64,000 bases of DNA from the sequence record MZ065353.1; one strand, written 5' to 3'. Source of the stretch: Escherichia virus KFS-EC3. The position numbers and the translations under genes are program-made. Below, piece after piece: positions 4,138 to 62,183 of the stretch (its first letter is position 1; each line of letters starts with the position of its first letter). The notes below the pieces were generated by a model. The model saw only the letters and a list, made by a program, of their open reading frames with translations. It had not been told where the DNA came from and made no database searches.

Positions 4138-5103
4138 TTATATTGCTCCTAATATTTTACTTTGCGAATTGACAATTCCTGTCATAGTATTAATGTTTGA
4201 AATGCTTCCAGCAGTTCCCCCTAATCTACTAAGTCGTGAAAGCGAATTAGATAATCCAGTAACACCTCCACTATTTCCGAGAACGCTTTGAATGCCATTT
4301 ATAGCAGCAGATTCAAGCCACTCAAGCGCAGCTTGTCTATCAACCGACCCGGCCTGCATGACTCTATACGCAAAAGTAACATCAAATGTAGTTATTTGGT
4401 TATCTCCATCATATGATAACTCAGGAGCGCTCACTGACACTGGAATGCATCCGGTGAACATCACCGCAGTATGAGGTAATCCATTACGAGCATGAAGATT
4501 AACCTGAATATCTGCCTCGACATCTTGCGGCAAAGCACGCAGTCCAGTTACTGGGTCTTGAACAGCGTTAACCCAGTCTTGCATTGCACGATAGTTACAA
4601 GCTTCTGAATCCATTCTAAATGAAATAACCAAAGGGTCTAATTCTCTCCCAGTTATACGAATATTAGGAGAGTTATAATTCCAGTCAGTTTCATAGGATA
4701 ATCTATTCTCTGGCATTTTTACAGAATATATCATCAATCCAGATGAGTTATATGCCATATTAAAGAAGTCAATTAAATATGTACCAACTGTAAATGAGCC
4801 CAATAAACTTTGAACTGTACGTTGACTCATGGCACCAATAAGATATTTACTAACCCCTGATTTTCTTATCAGTTTTTGTGTGCCAGCAGTAATTAGCGTG
4901 GTAATTCCCTGATTAATATCGCCTTGAGACAATCCTAACCAGTCTGAATTTAGACCCAAGTTATTATAAGAAAAGTTGCTAATTGAACTTATCAACGAAG
5001 AGCTTTTAGTTGATGGAGTTGTCGCAAAAACGCAGCTAAACATATTATTACGCTGGAAATCTGCGTTTATTGCTTGATTATTAAATTCCTCTAAAGAATA
5101 CAT
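4138..5103 (-). CDS. 54: gp54 baseplate tail-tube initiator
   Basis: 321 aa; position and length match T4 gp54; start overlaps the gp48 stop. Confidence 0.85.
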   Translation of the reverse strand: MYSLEEFNNQAINADFQRNNMFSCVFATTPSTKSSSLISSISNFSYNNLGLNSDWLGLSQGDINQGITTLITAGTQKLIRKSGVSKYLIGAMSQRTVQSLLGSFTVGTYLIDFFNMAYNSSGLMIYSVKMPENRLSYETDWNYNSPNIRITGRELDPLVISFRMDSEACNYRAMQDWVNAVQDPVTGLRALPQDVEADIQVNLHARNGLPHTAVMFTGCIPVSVSAPELSYDGDNQITTFDVTFAYRVMQAGSVDRQAALEWLESAAINGIQSVLGNSGGVTGLSNSLSRLSRLGGTAGSISNINTMTGIVNSQSKILGAI

Positions 5104-6197
5104 TAAAAAGTCCCCGCATATAAAGAAGCACGGTTTAACGTGATAATTTCTCTCATAGTAATCTCAAGAGTAAATGTACTAGGGAGGTTTGGAGCAATAG
5201 CTAATCCGTTAAAGTTACCATTAGGTGTTTTATCAAATCTGATGCTCTGTATTTGACATGGGCCAAATATTTCCGTTTTTCCATCAAACTTAGATGTTGC
5301 ACCAAAGTTTTTCACCATCCAAATTGTTGGGTTTGAAACTACTAGAACGTTAGTTAAACTCGATGTCATTTTCTCAAATAGTGTTTTATTTTTAGCTGCG
5401 TCTTCCGGAGATAAAGGTTCAATTAACGTAGAACGATACCAATCATCTAAATACCCCTTTATTTCAGCAGCATATTGAGATTTGCCCGTTTCACCATAAG
5501 AAAAATAGTTAAAATATTGATAGATATTGATAATAGCCATCAAATCTTCTGTTGAACGTGGAGTCAAATCCCATGTAAACACTTTAGTTCTATTCTCAGC
5601 ACCGCCATACATACTTCTGGCTGTCGTATAAATCTGTTCATTATTATCAGCCATTATACCTTGTGTTATACTTTCCAGTGCCCCAAATACTGCAGTTGAA
5701 GCAATATTACTTAACACACCAGTAGCAGTACCTCCGCCTCTGCTGATAAGACTTTCTTGAACATCATTAAATCTATGTGATGATGTATCAACGTCAGATT
5801 TAGATCTCGGTAAAAGAATGTTTGCGACAGGAGCTTTACTTATTGTTCCTGAATTATTGTTTGATATTAATCCATTTGATAGTTTTGATACTGTACTACT
5901 AATAGTGTTTCTAGCTGTACTTAAAATACTCGAAGATGAAGAAGAGTAGTTAGATCTCATCGATCTAAGACTTCCAGAATCCCTAGATGACATATTGTAT
6001 GCAGTAAATAATAATCCATTCTTATATAGATCTGTTACCTGGAAGTCCCCTGTAGTGTCATTACCACTAGCACGCCCAGTTGGAAACTGGGCAGTGTATG
6101 TTTTAGTTGCTACTTCTGATTTAGTACTCTGTCCGGCTGAAATTTTCTCACCGGACTTTTTAATTAAATCAGCAGTTATTTCTTTAACAATTGCCAT
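5103..6197 (-). CDS. 48: gp48 baseplate tail-tube cap
   Basis: 364 aa, T4 gene order and length. Confidence 0.85.
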   Translation of the reverse strand: MAIVKEITADLIKKSGEKISAGQSTKSEVATKTYTAQFPTGRASGNDTTGDFQVTDLYKNGLLFTAYNMSSRDSGSLRSMRSNYSSSSSSILSTARNTISSTVSKLSNGLISNNNSGTISKAPVANILLPRSKSDVDTSSHRFNDVQESLISRGGGTATGVLSNIASTAVFGALESITQGIMADNNEQIYTTARSMYGGAENRTKVFTWDLTPRSTEDLMAIINIYQYFNYFSYGETGKSQYAAEIKGYLDDWYRSTLIEPLSPEDAAKNKTLFEKMTSSLTNVLVVSNPTIWMVKNFGATSKFDGKTEIFGPCQIQSIRFDKTPNGNFNGLAIAPNLPSTFTLEITMREIITLNRASLYAGTF

Positions 6198-55422: not shown

Positions 55423-55495
55423 TGGGAATTAGCCAAGTTGGTAAGGCACTGGATTTTGATTCCAGGATGCAAAGGTTCGAGTCCTTTATTCCCAG
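55423..55495 (+). tRNA. tRNA-Gln (anticodon TTG)
   Basis: Manual cloverleaf: acceptor tgggaat/attccca, anticodon loop ttTTGat, T-arm ggttcgagtcc. Confidence 0.8.
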
Positions 55496-55496
55496 C

Positions 55497-55583
55497 GCGA
55501 GAATGGTCAAATTGGTAAAGGCACAGCACTTAAAATGCTGCGGAATGATTTCCTTGTGGGTTCGAGTCCCACTTCTCGTACCA
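55497..55583 (+). tRNA. tRNA-Leu (anticodon TAA), long variable arm, encoded CCA
   Basis: Acceptor gcgagaa/ttctcgt, anticodon loop ctTAAaa, T-arm ggttcgagtcc, 3' ...a-cca. Confidence 0.8.
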
Positions 55584-55589
55584 AAGTTT

Positions 55590-55661
<72 letters not shown>

Positions 55662-55673
55662 AAATTTAATTTA

Positions 55674-55747
55674 CTCCGTGTAGCTCAGTTTGGTAGAGCG
55701 TCTGCTTTGGGAGCAGAATGTCGTAGGTTCAAATCCTGCCGCGGAGA
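55674..55747 (+). tRNA. tRNA-Pro (anticodon TGG)
   Basis: Acceptor ctccgtg/cgcggag, anticodon loop ttTGGga, T-arm aggttcaaatcct. Confidence 0.8.
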
Positions 55748-55749
55748 CT

Positions 55750-55836
55750 GGAGGCGTGGCAGAGTGGTTTAATGCACCGGTCTTGAAAACCGGCAGTCGC
55801 TCCGGCGACTCATAGGTTCAAATCCTATCGCCTCCG
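55750..55836 (+). tRNA. tRNA-Ser (anticodon TGA), long variable arm
   Basis: Acceptor ggaggcg/cgcctcc, anticodon loop ctTGAaa, T-arm aggttcaaatcct. Confidence 0.8.
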
Positions 55837-55843
55837 TAATTTC

Positions 55844-55916
55844 GCTGATTTAGCTCAGTAGGTAGAGCACCTCACTTGTAATGAGGACGTCGGCGGTTCG
55901 ATTCCGTCAATCAGCA
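55844..55916 (+). tRNA. tRNA-Thr (anticodon TGT)
   Basis: Acceptor gctgatt/aatcagc, anticodon loop ctTGTaa, T-arm cggttcgattccg. Confidence 0.8.
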
Positions 55917-55922
55917 TATCAA

Positions 55923-55994
55923 GGCCCTGTAGCTGGAAGGTTCAAGCAAGCGACTCATAATCGCCAGATGGTGGTTCAATTCCACCCAGGGCCA
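55923..55994 (+). tRNA. tRNA with CAT anticodon (Ile by T4 precedent, lysidine-modified; Met by sequence alone)
   Basis: Acceptor ggccctg/cagggcc, anticodon loop ctCATaa, T-arm ggttcaattcc. Confidence 0.75.
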
Positions 55995-56035
55995 TATTTT
56001 GAGAACATAAATACTCTTAGAAATAGGAGATATTT

Positions 56036-56701
56036 ATGTTCCATTACATTTATAAAATAACAAATAAAATTAATAATAAAATCTATATAGGCGCTCATTC
56101 TACCGAAAATTTAGATGATGGATATATGGGTTCTGGCAAATTATTAAAAAGAGCCCAAGACAAGTATGGTATAGAAAATTTCTCTAAAGAAATATTAGAG
56201 TTCTTTGACGATAAAACCTCTATGTTTGAGTCAGAAAAGAATATTGTGACTGAAGAGTTTTTAAAGCGCCCTGATGTTTATAATTTGAAATTAGGTGGTG
56301 AAGGTGGTTGGGACCATTTAAACACTAAAGAATATTTGGATAAAAAGAAAGAAGCTTCCTTAAAAGGAGCTGCCGCTTTTAAAACCAGATTTGAGAACGA
56401 CCCAGACCTTAAAGAAAAATATCGTAAAATGGGTTCAGAAAGGTTTAAACAGCTTTGGGATAATCCTAAGTATAGAGAGAAATTTTTAAATACTAAATCT
56501 TTCTTGGGTAAGACCCATACTCCTGAAACTATTAATAAAATGAAAGAATCTCACGCCAGAAATAAACACCAACAGGGCGAAAAGAATTCCCAATTTGGTA
56601 TGATGTGGATTCATTCATTAGATGAAAAAGTTTCTAAACGTATTAAGAAAACTGACCCAATTCCAGAAGGATGGTTTAAAGGTCGAAAAATGAAATTTTA
56701 A
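56036..56701 (+). CDS. segB: GIY-YIG homing endonuclease SegB-like, embedded in the tRNA cluster
   Basis: 221 aa; N-terminal GIY-YIG-type motif FHYIYKITNKINNKIYIGAHS; located between tRNA-Ile and tRNA-Arg as T4 segB is. Confidence 0.8.
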   Translation: MFHYIYKITNKINNKIYIGAHSTENLDDGYMGSGKLLKRAQDKYGIENFSKEILEFFDDKTSMFESEKNIVTEEFLKRPDVYNLKLGGEGGWDHLNTKEYLDKKKEASLKGAAAFKTRFENDPDLKEKYRKMGSERFKQLWDNPKYREKFLNTKSFLGKTHTPETINKMKESHARNKHQQGEKNSQFGMMWIHSLDEKVSKRIKKTDPIPEGWFKGRKMKF

Positions 56702-56704
56702 TTA

Positions 56705-56781
<77 letters not shown>

Positions 56782-58209: not shown

Positions 58210-58740
58210 ATGTCTCTTTATACCGAACTAAATGAAACTTCCGAAAAATCTTTTGATGGTATCTTATCAATAATGCAAAAGCAGGTATTAGAACAACTTA
58301 GTGAAGCCGCAAGCAATGGGCACAAGGCTTGTCGAGTCCAAAGCCCACATCGTCGCATGTATGAACGCCCTCTTATTAATTGGTTAGAAAGCGAAGGTCT
58401 TACGGTTAAGATTTGCCCTGCTAAATTTGATGTCCCACGTATTCTTAATATTTACTGGGATAAACCGGTTGATAAACCGGTTGAGAAAAGTGACCCTTGG
58501 GTTGTTAATGTAAAAACATGTGATAATGGATGCTCACTTGAGGTGTCTGCTGTAATTAAAGGCACTCACGGTGAAAAAACGTGGGGTTGGCCTGGTAAAG
58601 ATAAAGAAATCGTGTTAAGTGTAAAAGCTACTAGTATTAGTACTCCTATAGCTAAAAGCATTATCACTGCCGCTGTTGAAGAAGCTGAACGAATTTGTAA
58701 AATTAAAAATAGTTTACATCTCTTAAGTAGCATGATATAA
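58210..58740 (+). CDS. hypothetical protein (176 aa)
   Basis: ATG at 58210 in frame with the track ORF; no recognisable motifs. Confidence 0.5.
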   Translation: MSLYTELNETSEKSFDGILSIMQKQVLEQLSEAASNGHKACRVQSPHRRMYERPLINWLESEGLTVKICPAKFDVPRILNIYWDKPVDKPVEKSDPWVVNVKTCDNGCSLEVSAVIKGTHGEKTWGWPGKDKEIVLSVKATSISTPIAKSIITAAVEEAERICKIKNSLHLLSSMI

Positions 58741-58741
58741 T
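58712..58741 (+). promoter_or_regulatory. early promoter (GTTTAC, 18-nt spacer, TATAAT) inside the 3' end of the preceding gene
   Basis: GTTTAC at 58712-58717; TATAAT at 58736-58741. Confidence 0.55.
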
Positions 58742-58783: not shown

Positions 58784-59377
58784 ATGAACACACTGAAGAA
58801 AATTGTTGAGTTTATTCGCACTAAACTTGGTTCTGCTATGGCTAAAAATCTATCTGTTGAAGAGCAGTATACTGCTGCGGCAGCAAAACTACTTGATAAA
58901 ATTAAAGACCTAAAAACTGCTTCTATTAAATCTATTAATGAAGAAAAACGTATTCGTGAACTTATTGTCGAAAAGAATAAGCAGGCCGAATCAAAAGAGC
59001 GTGAAATTCGCAAGCTTCTTTCCGAAGGTCAAGATGTAACAATGCATGCTAAACTTGGTTTACTATATCGTCGAACAGCTGAGCAGTTGACTACTAAGGC
59101 TGACGGTTATGCCGAAATGCGAATTGAAATCGCTAAGAAAGTAGTTGAGTTAGATGATGCTCGCCAAGAACTTGCAGTTAAATTGGAATATATCCGTGAA
59201 ACTCGTGCGGCAAATGCCCTTGGAATTAGTACTGCTGATGATGTAGTTGAAATTGCAGCACTGACTAAGGTTGATATTGAAGATACCCTTGCTCGAGTTG
59301 AAACCTTTAACGGTAATATTTCTGGGGTTGAAACCACCTCTGCCGATGTCCAGGAATATATTAATTCTCTGAAATAA
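58784..59377 (+). CDS. hypothetical coiled-coil protein (197 aa)
   Basis: AAGGA ribosome-binding site; heptad-rich, charged sequence; followed by hairpin GGGGC-TTCC-GCCCC at 59383-59398. Confidence 0.55.
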
Positions 59378-59418
59378 TGATAAGGGGCTTCCGCCCCTAT
59401 TACTTGGAGTAAATAGGA

Positions 59419-60024
59419 ATGAAAATGCAAAGTGATTTCAATTCAATGTTTGAAGAGTTCCAAAGACAGGTTGATGTTCCAGATCAATTACTAAATGCTC
59501 TTAAACGTATGGCAGAAGGACGTAATTACTATTGGGGGTCTTCATACGAAACTGATGAAAGTCTTTCTGGATTTTATAAAGGTAAAAAGTCTTTAATACG
59601 TCCTGGAATACTCATTAAAAGTATTGAATCAATTCATTCATTGACGTGTGATTTTGATGTTGAATTTACTGATTTCATTTCTCCTGAATGGACAGTTTGT
59701 TATTTAAATGACGATTATGATTATCTTGGCGTTTACAGTTTAAGTGACGCATGGTTTAAACGTAATTTACAAAAGTCAAATTTGTTCTATATTGATACTA
59801 CGGTAAAATTTCAGGGAAAGAAATATTTCTTTACTCTTATAGTTGACTCTGAAACGAAGCATGAAAATAAACGTATTCTTAGTAAAAGAAATATCTTGAA
59901 TATTGTTGATGATCTTTTTGATAAATTAGTGGAAAATCCTAATTTTGAAAGTGATTTATTACTAGAAAAATTTGTTAAGGAATGTAGAGAATATGTCAAA
60001 GCCATCACTATACCTTCCAAGTAA
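59419..60024 (+). CDS. hypothetical protein (201 aa), first member of the junction-linked tandem family
   Basis: C-terminal FVKECRE motif; its 3' coding sequence contains the ribosome-binding site and start of the next gene. Confidence 0.5.
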   Translation: MKMQSDFNSMFEEFQRQVDVPDQLLNALKRMAEGRNYYWGSSYETDESLSGFYKGKKSLIRPGILIKSIESIHSLTCDFDVEFTDFISPEWTVCYLNDDYDYLGVYSLSDAWFKRNLQKSNLFYIDTTVKFQGKKYFFTLIVDSETKHENKRILSKRNILNIVDDLFDKLVENPNFESDLLLEKFVKECREYVKAITIPSK

Positions 60025-60385
60025 ACCTTTGAAGTATGAATTAAAGCGCCAGCTAATTCCTACTGATGTATTAATAGGTCCTGTTATACTCATATCATTT
60101 GTAATTCTATTGATTATTGGAGGTGTTTTAGATGTTATGACTGATATTGATTCTGGCGAAATACTTGTGTTAATGCTAATTCTTCCATTAATAGTTCCAC
60201 TTTTATTAGTACCTGTAAATTGGGTAGGATACTGGTATCAAGGAAGGCATTATCGTAAACGCGTACGTGATTGGAAAGCACAGTGTAAAAAGATTAAAAA
60301 GGAACATCAGCTTAAACTTGCTGCGTATGAATTTGATGAAATTATGAAATTTGTTAAGGAATCACGATGCAAAAGCCAAAACTAA
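59993..60385 (+). CDS. small membrane protein (130 aa), tandem family member
   Basis: Two hydrophobic helices (LIGPVILISFVILLIIGGVL, LVLMLILPLIVPLLLVPV); C-terminal FVKESRC motif. Confidence 0.5.
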   Translation: MSKPSLYLPSKPLKYELKRQLIPTDVLIGPVILISFVILLIIGGVLDVMTDIDSGEILVLMLILPLIVPLLLVPVNWVGYWYQGRHYRKRVRDWKAQCKKIKKEHQLKLAAYEFDEIMKFVKESRCKSQN

Positions 60386-60729
60386 ATAAAGTCAAATATT
60401 CGCTTCCTGAGTCATTTTTAATTTTTGCTGTGGCGTTGGCTGCAGCTCTTGCGGGTAGTCTTTTTGGATTATTAATTGACTGTCTTATTTTAAACATCGA
60501 CGGCACAGTAAATATAATAGAAGTTTGGAGTGAACTTCGCTATACTAAAATTATTTCATTATTTTCATTCTTTGGTACCATGCTATATTTTCATTATGAT
60601 AATTTTAAAATAAATTGGCAAAGAAAAAAGGATTACAAAATACAATTAAAAGAATATAATAGCTACATGTCTTATATTGAAAATGAATCAATGAAAGAGT
60701 TTGTGAGTGATTGCAGGAAAATCAAATGA
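60367..60729 (+). CDS. small membrane protein (120 aa), tandem family member
   Basis: Hydrophobic segments; C-terminal FVSDCRKIK; stop overlaps the next start (ATGA). Confidence 0.5.
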   Translation: MQKPKLNKVKYSLPESFLIFAVALAAALAGSLFGLLIDCLILNIDGTVNIIEVWSELRYTKIISLFSFFGTMLYFHYDNFKINWQRKKDYKIQLKEYNSYMSYIENESMKEFVSDCRKIK

Positions 60730-61210
60730 TTTTAAAAACTCGCTGGTATGATTTAGATGACGGGGATGATGGCATTTCAGTTGATAGAGTTGACTGGAAT
60801 GGCTGTTCCGAAGATATGAAAAATTTGCTGATTAGGGAGTTTAGAATGGGATATCAACCAGTTAAGCCATCTACTGCAACAGATGATAAATTCGTGTGTA
60901 TTCATAATGGTCGCGCTAAATTAACGAACGCTGATTGGTTCACAGATAAGATTATGATTCTGTGGTATATTATTAGTTTTCCTGTGACATCATTTGTATT
61001 TTGCTTCTTTGGAGAAAGTCCAGTAGGCAGAACGGAAGATTGGATTCTTTTAATTATACTTGTTAATATTTTTACAGCAGCAGTACTATCAGGAATATGG
61101 TGCGTGTTCATTGAAATGCCATGGCGGCTACGCAGACAACAAAAGATTTTTGATGAAAAGAAATACGCTCAAAATTTAAATAACTTTATCACTGAATGCA
61201 GGAAATTAAA

Positions 61211-61214
<4 letters not shown>
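60726..61214 (+). CDS. small membrane protein (162 aa), tandem family member
   Basis: The track start at 60711 is a TTG; the ATG at 60726 sits in an ATGA overlap. Hydrophobic segments; C-terminal FITECRKLK. Confidence 0.5.

Positions 61215-62183
<969 letters not shown>

Follow-up and report, generated by a model that had tools for sequence, protein, structure and literature searches.

A shared C-terminal tail encoded at the abutting gene junctions of e.5, e.4, e.3 and e.2 in a T4-like phage

Promoter-early stem-loops (PeSLs) are mobile regulatory cassettes associated with modular gene shuffling in T4-type phages (Arbiol et al., 2010, PMC2839356; Comeau et al., 2014, PMC4122927). They are intergenic and combine a sigma-70-like promoter with a terminator stem-loop (PMC2839356; PMC4122927), and their circular excision products can be sought by inverse PCR on infected cells (PMC2839356). 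We regard PeSL-mediated shuffling as the closest known concept to the gene junctions analysed here, which we regard as a coding-sequence variant of it. In both systems a short conserved sequence recurs at the boundaries between genes of hyperplastic regions, its 3' end providing the Shine-Dalgarno sequence and the start ATG for the gene that follows; in both, recombination between copies cleanly removes or swaps whole ORFs, with the crossovers in the present case apparently falling inside the repeat. In contrast to PeSLs, the e-junctions contain no intergenic DNA, promoter or stem-loop, and their repeat is protein-coding and conserved in amino acids.

Deletions between short direct repeats are also familiar in T4 from the classical rII deletion studies. 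The crossovers described below likewise lie in short identities of 7–13 nt (TGCAGGAAA, GAGGTTC, AATG); the difference is that the repeats here are functional junctions, so that the deletion products would stay fully expressed operons, and they do persist in nature. About half of the T4 genes have no known function, and the e.2–e.8 block is a classic 'hyperplastic' region.

Positions 59419–61214 of the window, by which we mean the whole 64 kb stretch of DNA that was analysed, hold orthologues of T4 e.5, e.4, e.3 and e.2 (formerly msp4–msp7; PHROGs 2607, 2604, 2330 and 2203), followed by nudE and e. Their matches to the T4 proteins and PHROG families have E-values of 1e-107, 6e-71, 4e-60 and 2e-79 respectively, and the DNA of the block is 93.5% identical to T4 (AF158101) and 98% identical to vB_EcoM_G50. 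Gene order is as in T4, with the block lying between e.6 and nudE/e, 3' of the tRNA cluster. The T4 match and this synteny bear out the location in the T-even e.2–e.8 block that was proposed in a preliminary description of the DNA, and by sequence the block belongs to a Tequatrovirus (T4-like phage) genome. The e.2 gene is intact in the window (162 aa); in the T4 reference, −1/+1 indels disrupt the gene, and its annotated product is 102 aa. The genes of the run and their upstream neighbour are as follows.

58784–59377, + strand: e.6 orthologue, 197 aa, phrog_1203; upstream neighbour of the block, without the tail motif.
59419–60024, + strand: e.5 orthologue, 201 aa, phrog_2607; predicted soluble, no transmembrane (TM) helix; ends ...EKFVKECREYVKAITIPSK, then stop.
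59993–60385, + strand: e.4 orthologue, 130 aa, phrog_2604; two predicted TM helices, N-in/C-in; ends ...MKFVKESRCKSQN, then stop.
60367–60729, + strand: e.3 orthologue, 120 aa, phrog_2330; one strong and one weaker predicted TM helix; ends ...KEFVSDCRKIK, then stop.
60726–61214, + strand: e.2 orthologue, 162 aa, phrog_2203; predicted N-terminal cytoplasmic domain and two TM helices; ends FITECRKLK, then stop.
61211–61651, + strand: nudE (Nudix hydrolase; PF00293, E 6e-13); last gene of the gap-free run.

Orthologues of each of e.5, e.4, e.3 and e.2 occur in three or more T-even-like coliphage genera. Databases class the four proteins as unrelated families (precomputed Pfam identifiers are PF26876 for e.5 and PF26896 for e.2), and a common tail is not mentioned in the database or record annotations inspected for e.5–e.2. 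A full-text literature search found no paper on these genes, whose names collide with figure and section numbers.

The five genes from e.5 to nudE have no intergenic DNA between neighbours. As the preliminary description had it, stop and start codons overlap exactly as ATGA at two of the junctions, e.3/e.2 and e.2/nudE; the overlaps of e.5/e.4 (32 nt) and e.4/e.3 (19 nt) are longer. The ribosome-binding site of each next gene had also been placed within the DNA coding for the tail of the preceding protein. This holds well for three genes, each with its Shine-Dalgarno sequence 7 nt before the start: e.3 (AAGGAA at 60356–60361, ATG at 60367), inside the e.4 motif codons; e.2 (AGGA at 60715–60718, start at 60726), inside the e.3 tail codons; and nudE (AGGA at 61200–61203, start at 61211), inside the e.2 tail codons. 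It holds less well for e.4, whose candidate signal, AAGGA (59977–59981), is 11 nt from the ATG and therefore sub-optimal, with only a weak GAG closer by. In its two ATGA overlaps, its 19 nt and 32 nt ones and its Shine-Dalgarno sequences within the upstream gene, the run resembles known operons with ATGA-type translational coupling. Overlapping pairs are in themselves common, 12 of the 36 same-strand neighbour pairs in the window overlapping by a crude gene calling; what differs from such ordinary pairs is that here the overlapped codons spell one conserved peptide in four successive genes. The overlaps would permit the translational coupling that the preliminary description assumed throughout, but independent initiation is equally possible because no RNA structure hides the Shine-Dalgarno sequences. 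RNA folding of the four junctions was no better than that of shuffled sequence (z = 0.73, 0.30, −1.53 and 0.74), and no Rfam family was found within the block.

Two elements upstream of the run may bear on its transcription.

58713–58741, + strand: sigma-70-like (T4 early-type) promoter, TTTACA-17-TATAAT with TG, 11/12 matches, 5' of e.6.
59383–59398, + strand: GC-rich hairpin between e.6 and e.5.

The promoter, rated strong, is the nearest good one upstream of the e.5–nudE block, and the old T4 record L13089 annotates −35/−10 signals at the equivalent relative place. No promoter-like site was found at the four junctions, and the 16 such sites in total are no excess over shuffled sequence (13.8 ± 3.5). 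Transcription of e.5–nudE is probably read-through from the early promoter ahead of e.6. The hairpin, where L13089 likewise annotates a stem-loop, is the sole intergenic element ahead of the gap-free run and might possibly act as an attenuator.

The four proteins end in a common tail with the consensus hydrophobic-x-x-F-[IV]-x-[ED]-C-R-[KE]. The motif F[VI].[ED][CS]R occurs four times in the six frames of the 64 kb window, compared with 0.42 occurrences expected from residue frequencies and a mean of 0.48 (maximum 3) in 100 Markov-1 simulations. All four copies fall no more than 18 aa from the C-terminal end of their ORFs, which are four neighbours in a window with 64 ORFs of at least 100 aa. 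The common tail at four gene junctions is thus confirmed as real and beyond chance. The motif copies of e.5 and e.4, and the DNA repeats at the junctions, are located as follows.

59971–59988, + strand: tail motif FVKECR of e.5; the AAGGA within it serves e.4.
60350–60367, + strand: tail motif FVKESR of e.4; the AAGGAA within it serves e.3.
59968–59983, + strand: junction repeat A, copy 1 (AAATTTGTTAAGGAAT), 16 nt, 100% identical to copy 2.
60347–60362, + strand: junction repeat A, copy 2, 16 nt (repeat family D9).
60700–60729, + strand: junction repeat B, copy 1, coding for FVSDCRKIK-stop, with AGGA and ATGA overlap (family D2).
61185–61214, + strand: junction repeat B, copy 2, coding for FITECRKLK-stop, with AGGA and ATGA overlap (family D2).

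The repeat B copies are 30 nt long and 80% identical, and the A and B pairs each score above 99.9% of random window pairs. The junctions had been described as reusing a single sequence; repeats are indeed found, but as two DNA repeat pairs rather than one common sequence. Similarly, the motif F-[VI]-x-[ED]-C-R attributed to all four proteins is present in e.5, e.3 and e.2, but in e.4 the Cys position is occupied by Ser. The Cys of e.4 comes two residues later, where it results incidentally from the e.3 start (cgATGc) that overlaps it, and the e.4 tail of Gaprivervirus has no Cys at all. Because e.4 lacks the motif Cys, a Cys-centred mechanism cannot hold for all four proteins, and a shared four-Cys metal site was set aside.

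Beyond the tail, the proteins resemble one another unevenly. In agreement with the earlier count of three membrane proteins among the four, e.4, e.3 and e.2 each have two hydrophobic helices and are predicted to be two-TM hairpin proteins with a common layout: a cytoplasmic N-terminus (a 75 aa domain in e.2), two TM helices, a basic cytoplasmic helix (in e.4, for example, the C-terminal helix is predicted to be basic) and the tail. The positive-inside rule places the tails on the cytoplasmic side. The end of e.5 (LLLEKFVKECREYVKAITIPSK, then stop) is also a predicted helix, and AF2 secondary structure has the tails helical at low confidence, the models being poor (pLDDT 55 for e.5, from a 9-sequence alignment, and 48 for e.2, from 11 sequences). 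Profile comparison of e.3 with e.4 by hhalign gave a probability of 90% (E 1.7e-6) over 42 columns, BLASTP aligns the two collinearly over their full length (22% identity, E 0.019), and both begin M[SQ]KP.L; they look paralogous. The match of e.3 to e.2 covers 18 tail columns (hhalign probability 82%) and that of e.5 covers 14 tail columns only (probability 25%); e.4 and e.2 did not match significantly, and the TM regions did not align in the comparison of the e.4, e.3 and e.2 families. The description of the locus as a tandem family therefore suits e.3 and e.4; for e.2 and e.5 the resemblance stops at the tail. The likeness of e.2 and e.5 to the others, confined to these 14–18 residues, may reflect convergence, tail capture or common descent.

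Searches of Pfam, NCBIfam and PADLOC returned no match for any of the four proteins, and thus no PADLOC model of a known anti-phage defence or counter-defence family; a PDB sequence search with e.5 was also negative. A superinfection-exclusion or anti-defence role, at which the preliminary description hinted, would be conjecture. Nearly all homologues retrieved with e.3, e.5 and e.2 as queries were close relatives. Several GenBank records label e.3 a rhodanese/sulfurtransferase, but no rhodanese domain and no Pfam or NCBIfam match was found; the label appears to be annotation noise on a 120 aa TM hairpin, and the idea of a rhodanese-like 'CRK' active site, prompted by such labels, was rejected because the domain is absent. 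The opening ∼36 nt of e.2 also resemble the opening ∼35 nt of nudE, though read in a different frame (repeat family D8). We reject this resemblance as evidence of origin because the N-terminus of e.2 (W7, D11, D12) is conserved in distant genera.

We lean, though not strongly, towards an explanation in which e.5–nudE is a gap-free single operon whose products share an interaction tail, with dual-coding junctions and recombination of cassettes. Each of the four e-proteins would end in a short cytoplasmic amphipathic-helix tail maintained by protein selection and, because the genes abut, the tail codons would also have been recruited as the Shine-Dalgarno and start region of the next gene, making this a dual-coding sequence. 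The e.4 and e.3 proteins would be paralogous two-TM hairpins arisen by tandem duplication; e.2 would have the TM-TM-tail layout with an additional N-terminal domain, and e.5 would be a soluble tail-bearing protein. The T4 recombination machinery would use the short homologies of tail and junction to delete, convert and probably insert whole cassettes and, after an exchange, the upstream protein would retain its tail and the downstream gene its start. We infer that the tail is an interaction module that may bring soluble e.5 and the membrane proteins into one inner-membrane complex or, alternatively, dock all four on one partner; the gap-free arrangement would help their joint production.

A pure constraint on translation initiation would account for the motif differently, as the incidental coding of a Shine-Dalgarno sequence, a spacer and an A/U-rich start region, with the tail itself having no role. 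In the window, each next gene's Shine-Dalgarno sequence does sit in motif codons, AAG-GAA (K-E) and AGG-AAA (R-K) are Shine-Dalgarno-like, and the additional Cys in e.4 clearly arises from the ATG that overlaps it. We nevertheless consider this explanation improbable. Protein-level conservation in relatives had been chosen beforehand as the point on which selection of the peptide could fail, and the tail proved to be kept in all the orthologues that were examined from Mosig-, Dhaka-, Gapriver- and Kanagawavirus, other regions being only 20–45% identical, and in all distant relatives of e.2 found by an exhaustive phmmer search (only 10 representative proteins among 1.84 billion). Among distinct DNA variants, Arg is encoded by both codon families (AGG 7, CGT 8, AGA 5, CGA 2, CGC 1), Cys by TGT 12 times and TGC 9 times, Phe by TTT 21 times and TTC 3 times, and Ile/Val by four codons; Phe, Ile/Val and the hydrophobic residue at −3 are, moreover, not accounted for by a Shine-Dalgarno sequence. 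The position of the Shine-Dalgarno sequence also shifts while the motif persists. It lies at motif positions 3–4 in most cases; Tequatrovirus e.3/e.2 and Mosigvirus e.2 have two extra codons and carry it at positions 6–7. In the Dhaka/Gapriver e.5-like gene it is 3' of the motif, whose codons (ATT ACT GAA TGT CGT), 22 nt ahead of the next start, contain none. The tail is the sole BLASTP match between this e.5-like protein and Tequatrovirus e.5, for which hhalign adds one more collinear block in the body (72% probability). Because the motif is kept in diverged relatives, the codons vary and the Shine-Dalgarno position shifts, these comparisons indicate that the tail is selected at the amino-acid level, beyond being a mere by-product of the ribosome-binding site. 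Nucleotide constraint on the start region of the next gene certainly adds to the conservation, and is not fully separable from protein selection.

Rearrangements in relatives indicate that the junction repeats are recombination substrates for clean whole-gene loss. In T2-type phages (T2 and L012) exactly e.2 is missing, between the two junction repeats; because the hybrid junction reads gattgcaggaaattaaaATGAaaaca, the crossover is placed inside TGCAGGAAA. By record counts, e.2 is missing in roughly 50–60 of about 500 Tequatrovirus records. Similarly, two Dhakavirus-like lineages have lost precisely the e.4 stretch between its junction repeats, at differing crossover points: L015/L018 (junction aaagaggttcaaaATGgag) and, independently, L044 (junction aaagaggttcgtaATG); L014 keeps e.4 flanked by the repeats taaagaggttcaaaATG and taaggaggttcgtaATG. 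Junction-to-junction conversion is indicated by the e.3 tail, which in Tequatrovirus has the e.2 format (CRKIK-stop) and elsewhere ends CRK-stop or CKS-stop, and the tail/ATGA junction is followed by different genes in different genera. The e.2 and e.4 losses are what the preliminary description had predicted in proposing cassette recombination with breakpoints at the junction motif, but three viable rearrangements lie elsewhere: in-frame fusions in A2 (e.5::e.4) and UFV05 (e.4::e.2) and, in phiE142, a deletion within e.3. Inactivation of these genes is frequent, the T4 e.2 indels being one case, so the block can be dispensed with, in laboratory hosts at least. An IMG/VR search with TTYATYNNNGARTGYMGNAAATGA gave 19 matches. 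Genomes of the known Mosig-, Dhaka- and Gapriver types account for 11 of them, and the remaining eight are chance matches without ORFs, so that the junction was not found outside T-even-like phages in that collection.

Such events raise the alternative of a neutral relic, in which the tails are alike through recent duplication or gene conversion at the junctions and are under no selection. The identical 16 nt repeats, the 30 nt repeats at 80% identity and the apparently converted Tequatrovirus e.3 tail are what it would predict. We give it as little credence as the initiation constraint, since the tail is kept in four or five genera at 20–45% identity elsewhere, where the junction DNA itself differs, and is the best-conserved segment in both e.5 and e.2.

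Less probable again is a nascent peptide acting in cis, its C-terminal residues slowing termination or elongation from within the exit tunnel and so promoting re-initiation on the next gene. Conservation at the amino-acid level would suit such a peptide, as would the location of the motif in e.3 and e.2, never more than a few codons from the stop/start overlap, and coupling, if any, for which no RNA structure offers an explanation. Against this, the next AUG lies anywhere from −1 nt to +22 nt relative to the motif Arg codon, the e.5 stop is 11–15 codons 3' of the motif, and the tails have no known arrest-peptide signature. Least credible of all is an RNA operator, the junction being a translational repressor site (RegA-like, at A/U-rich starts) or another RNA signal common to the four starts. 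The junctions are A/U-rich with an AUG, and AAAUUUGUUAAGGAAUGU may resemble RegA-type sites, but the codon pattern favours protein selection, the two junction pairs are unlike at the DNA level, and neither an Rfam family nor significant structure was found at the junctions.

Returning to the dual-coding operon with a shared interaction tail, a bolder form of it, which we put forward tentatively and think rather unlikely, makes the tail a portable 'address tag': a cytoplasmic helix end of ∼10 residues that recruits otherwise unrelated early proteins (soluble e.5 and the membrane hairpins e.4, e.3 and e.2) to one membrane complex or target, its code doubling as a recombination-competent expression junction. 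Were this so, a gene recombined behind the tail would be translated at once and one recombined in front would acquire the tag; the junctions would be the coding counterpart of PeSL cassettes, tying gene shuffling to complex membership.

The common, selected C-terminal peptide and the presence of the genes in at least three genera argue that the four form a single functional system and are not a set of unrelated ORFans. The shared tail makes an uncharacterized gene block experimentally testable, without revealing its function, with ready controls in T2, which naturally lacks e.2, and in the Dhakavirus-like phages that naturally lack e.4. Junction-mediated modular shuffling in T4-type phages, of which the known cases are intergenic promoter/terminator cassettes, would be extended here to a dual-use coding sequence, in which the constraints of a protein motif, a ribosome-binding site and recombination homology can coexist in about 25 nt.

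The 58.7–62.2 kb region of the window is collinear with the T4 segment e.6-e.5-e.4-e.3-e.2-nudE-e, with a DNA identity of 93.5% to AF158101 and 98% to phage vB_EcoM_G50, and is matched by 504 phage records, nearly all Tequatrovirus. Its genes from e.5 onwards are as follows.

59419–60024, + strand: e.5, ORF of 201 aa
59993–60385, + strand: e.4, ORF of 130 aa
60367–60729, + strand: e.3, ORF of 120 aa
60726–61214, + strand: e.2, ORF of 162 aa
61211–61651, + strand: nudE, ORF of 146 aa
61689–62183: e (lysozyme), ORF of 164 aa

The genes e.5, e.4, e.3 and e.2 are themselves already known T4 ORFs. Each matches its own PHROG, with function unassigned; none matches Pfam, NCBIfam or PADLOC, e.5 has no sequence match in the PDB, and precomputed labels place e.5 (PF26876) and e.2 (PF26896) in separate families of newer Pfam releases. 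Literature searches turned up nothing on these genes or on their common tail; the gene names hamper searching, so an existing description could have been missed. In various GenBank records e.3 is named ‘sulfurtransferase’ or ‘DNA primase’ and neighbours ‘glutaredoxin’ or ‘major capsid protein’, and ‘host specificity protein’ occurs among the annotations under the match; these names are annotation noise, none of them backed by a domain match in Pfam or NCBIfam. In the T4 reference, annotated nudE begins at an upstream ATG (MQEIKMKTL..., window 61196) that lies within the e.2 motif codons and lacks a Shine-Dalgarno sequence. The T2 and A2 records start the gene at the ATG at 61211, which AGGA precedes by 7 nt. 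A NudE of 146 aa, not 151 aa, is the probable product. Elsewhere in the window, eight tRNA genes (Rfam) are clustered at 55423–56778, with a 221-aa ORF (56036–56701) between the seventh and eighth; the arrangement matches that of the T4 tRNA region, which carries the homing endonuclease segB, and confirms the origin and orientation of the window.

A six-frame search of the 64 kb window for F[VI].[ED][CS]R gives exactly four matches where 0.42–0.48 are expected, and all four copies lie in the last 18 residues of the adjacent ORFs e.5, e.4, e.3 and e.2. The ORF translations give the same four C-termini as the preliminary description, and the shared tail is real and non-random. That description also had one sequence serving all junctions. 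The tail codons do double as the start region of the next gene, but at the DNA level there are two repeat pairs, one of 16 nt and perfect (e.5/e.4 and e.4/e.3), the other of 30 nt and 80% identical (e.3/e.2 and e.2/nudE). AAGGA lies within the e.5 motif, with the e.4 start 11 nt away, and AAGGAA within the e.4 motif, 7 nt upstream of the e.3 start; e.3/e.2 and e.2/nudE are ATGA overlaps, each with its start 7 nt after AGGA. The e.4 motif has Ser where the other three have Cys, and the Cys two residues further on arises from the e.3 start that overlaps it (cgATGc). DNA similarity between e.2 and nudE also extends over their first ~36 nt (60742–60761 versus 61226–61245, 20 nt at 80%, in different frames), prolonging the 30-nt repeat at an offset of 1 nt. 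The resemblance may have been left by duplication or conversion of the junction, or may be chance; conservation of the e.2 N-terminus in distant genera speaks against a recent origin.

We gathered the locus from other genera, namely Mosigvirus, Gaprivervirus, Dhakavirus and Kanagawavirus (a Klebsiella phage; e.2 tail only).

C-terminal tails in other genera (dots, further residues)
Mosigvirus: e.5, ..FIMECREYVK..; e.4, ..FVKEIRCKSLNS-stop; e.3, ..FIKECRK-stop; e.2, ..FITECRNLR-stop
Gaprivervirus and Dhakavirus: e.5-like, ..FI[TAK]ECREYAK..; e.4, ..FIKE[IV]RNGTA-stop; e.3, ..FIKECKS-stop; e.2, ..FI[EK]ECRK-stop
Kanagawavirus: e.2, ..FIKGCR[DN]G..-stop

The tail is conserved at the amino-acid level. 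An exhaustive phmmer search with e.2 returned ten representative proteins only, and every full-length distant one among them (34–40% identity) ends with FI[KE][EGM]CR[KN]. The distribution is narrow, in T-even-like phages nearly all of enterobacteria. The e.5-like protein of Gaprivervirus and Dhakavirus (about 184 aa) matches Tequatrovirus e.5 by BLASTP only in the tail; because profile comparison adds one further collinear block (72% probability), the two are probably very diverged orthologues. Among distinct DNA variants, the motif Arg is encoded by AGG (7), CGT (8), AGA (5), CGA (2) and CGC (1), Cys by TGT (12) and TGC (9), Phe by TTT (21) and TTC (3), and Ile/Val by four codons. The Shine-Dalgarno sequence varies in position relative to the motif: AAGGAA falls at motif positions 3–4 in most cases, AGGAAA, accompanied by two additional codons, at positions 6–7 in Tequatrovirus e.3/e.2 and Mosigvirus e.2, and in the Dhakavirus and Gaprivervirus e.5-like gene AAAGAGG lies well downstream, the motif codons containing no Shine-Dalgarno sequence. 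A tail conserved purely as a footprint of the next ribosome-binding site, the alternative raised in the preliminary description, is at odds with tails kept across genera while codons vary and the Shine-Dalgarno sequence shifts. These comparisons lead us to the conclusion that selection acts on the amino-acid motif in its own right. Its conservation is surely reinforced by nucleotide constraint in the start region of the following gene.

Two clear TM helices are predicted in e.4 and e.2, and one strong and one weaker helix in e.3, so that three of the four are predicted membrane proteins, as previously proposed; e.5 is soluble. Charge distribution (the positive-inside rule) puts both termini of e.4, e.3 and e.2 in the cytoplasm, the C-terminal segments having net charges of +9 (e.4) and +5 (e.2). 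Hydrophobic tail residues at −3, 0, +1 and +4 (L/M/I, F, I/V and C) have the i, i+3, i+4, i+7 spacing of a helix packing face, with acidic and basic residues flanking, and AF2 predicts helical tails in low-confidence models (pLDDT 55 for e.5, 48 for e.2). Proteins e.3 and e.4 align over 42 columns from the TM2 end to the tail (hhalign, probability 90%, E 1.7e-6), give a full-length collinear BLASTP alignment at 22% identity and both start with M[SQ]KP.L. Given the hhalign and BLASTP similarity, they are likely tandem duplicates. The alignment of e.3 with e.2 covers 18 tail columns only (probability 82%), and profile comparison found no significant similarity past 10–14 residues between e.4 and e.2, or between e.5 and the other three. 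The proposed tandem family thus probably covers e.3 and e.4; e.2 shares their layout and the tail, e.5 the tail only.

Gene e.6 is flanked by a strong early-type promoter upstream (58713–58741) and a GC hairpin downstream; the genes from e.5 through nudE leave no intergenic base between them. None of the four junctions contains a promoter-like site or folds better than shuffled sequence (z = 0.73, 0.30, −1.53 and 0.74). Translational coupling is possible but not implied, because the Shine-Dalgarno sequences are predicted to be unstructured and could act independently; overlaps are common in the window (12/36 same-strand pairs, by crude gene calling).

At least three cassette losses run from junction to junction. 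In T2 and a second T2-like genome (L012) e.2 is missing exactly, and e.3 ends in FVSDCRKLK-stop (T2) or FVIDCRKLK-stop (L012). The T2-type junction is a hybrid, its left half from e.3/e.2 and its right half from e.2/nudE, with the crossover inside TGCAGGAAA and the ATGA overlap with nudE kept. This type accounts for about 50–60 of roughly 500 Tequatrovirus records (from record counts), and is a loss rather than the primitive state because e.2 lies upstream of nudE in Mosigvirus, Dhakavirus and Kanagawavirus. In VR26 the repeats taaagaggttcaaaATG and taaggaggttcgtaATG stand on either side of e.4; two IME341-like genomes (L015 and L018) lack e.4 and have aaagaggttcaaaATGgag, and a third e.4-less genome (L044) has aaagaggttcgtaATG. 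The crossover points differ, so these e.4 losses are independent. The Tequatrovirus e.3 tail (CRKIK-stop, Shine-Dalgarno in AGG-AAA) has the e.2-tail format, unlike e.3 elsewhere (CRK-stop or CKS-stop), which suggests junction-to-junction conversion. The e.3 junction is followed by e.2 in Tequatrovirus and by a gene from an unrelated family of small proteins in Mosigvirus, Gaprivervirus and Dhakavirus, the e.2 junction by nudE in Tequatrovirus and a 78-aa ORF elsewhere. Losses with crossovers in the repeats, and different genes behind the same junction, bear out one part of the preliminary interpretation, which is partly supported overall, namely a cassette array recombining at its junctions.

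The small proteins directly after the e.3 junction in those three genera form a second tandem family, soluble and of 65–101 aa, absent from the 64 kb window and without a Pfam match.

L005 3731–4525: Mosigvirus SA35RD ORFs 137, 136 and 135
L007 3484–4272: VR7 ORFs 142–140
L014 (VR26) and L015 (IME341-like) 4351–5376: further members

Every member ends in G-x-W-[VF]-x-S-S-x-x-C-stop, and the junctions, tgcTAAggaa..(a/t)tATG, comprise stop, Shine-Dalgarno sequence and start. The design principle is the same, a conserved C-terminal motif with a conserved junction.

Recombination at the junction does not account for every rearrangement, however, as some bypass it. Shigella phage A2 gp132 (L003 1626–2363) is an in-frame e.5(1–~120)::e.4 fusion, and phage vB_EcoM-UFV05 (protein P0111) carries a natural in-frame e.4(1–31)::e.2(88–162) fusion, joined inside TM1 in a common ‘GPV/PVT’ stretch and retaining the N-terminus/TM/TM/tail layout. 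In phiE142 (L031 2470–2595) an internal out-of-frame deletion reduces e.3 to a 16-codon ORF, and the tail/junction sequence tttattaaggaatgtagaaaATGA still precedes the next gene, which fits a requirement for the junction in downstream translation even without a tail product. Compared with window 60726–61214, e.2 of the T4 reference (AF158101.6, L001 4430–4918) carries a −1 and a +1 indel separated by 76 nt; a stop codon in the interval limits the annotated protein to 102 aa and leaves the tail, back in frame, unannotated. The indels reflect either a genuine lesion of the laboratory strain or a mistake in the old sequence; other isolates have truncated forms of 102 and 122 aa. In the BYEP02 record (L004 2540–3015) the e.4 tail contains a tandem duplication of 10 nt (ATTATGAAAT) and e.3 a duplication of roughly 90 nt; both shift the frame and strip the tails, and could be real or assembly errors. 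In view of the fusions, deletion and indels, the e.5–e.2 genes are dispensable and often decaying, as expected for accessory genes.

The nearest described mechanism is modular shuffling mediated by the promoter-early stem-loop, PeSL (PMC2839356, PMC4122927), which the e.5–nudE junctions resemble in their 3' Shine-Dalgarno/ATG and clean ORF indels. Unlike PeSL, they lack a promoter and a stem-loop, its two defining features, and are coding sequence under protein-level selection; we therefore do not class them as PeSL. We propose that the tail would act as an interaction surface, either assembling e.5 with the membrane hairpins or docking all four proteins on one partner. The gap-free arrangement would aid their joint synthesis, and junction homology may make clean loss, gain and conversion of cassettes more frequent. 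Candidate roles are membrane-associated early functions such as exclusion, counter-defence or envelope control, none of which we favour here. With the shared tail, four orphan genes become one testable system, and modular shuffling gains a coding-junction case.
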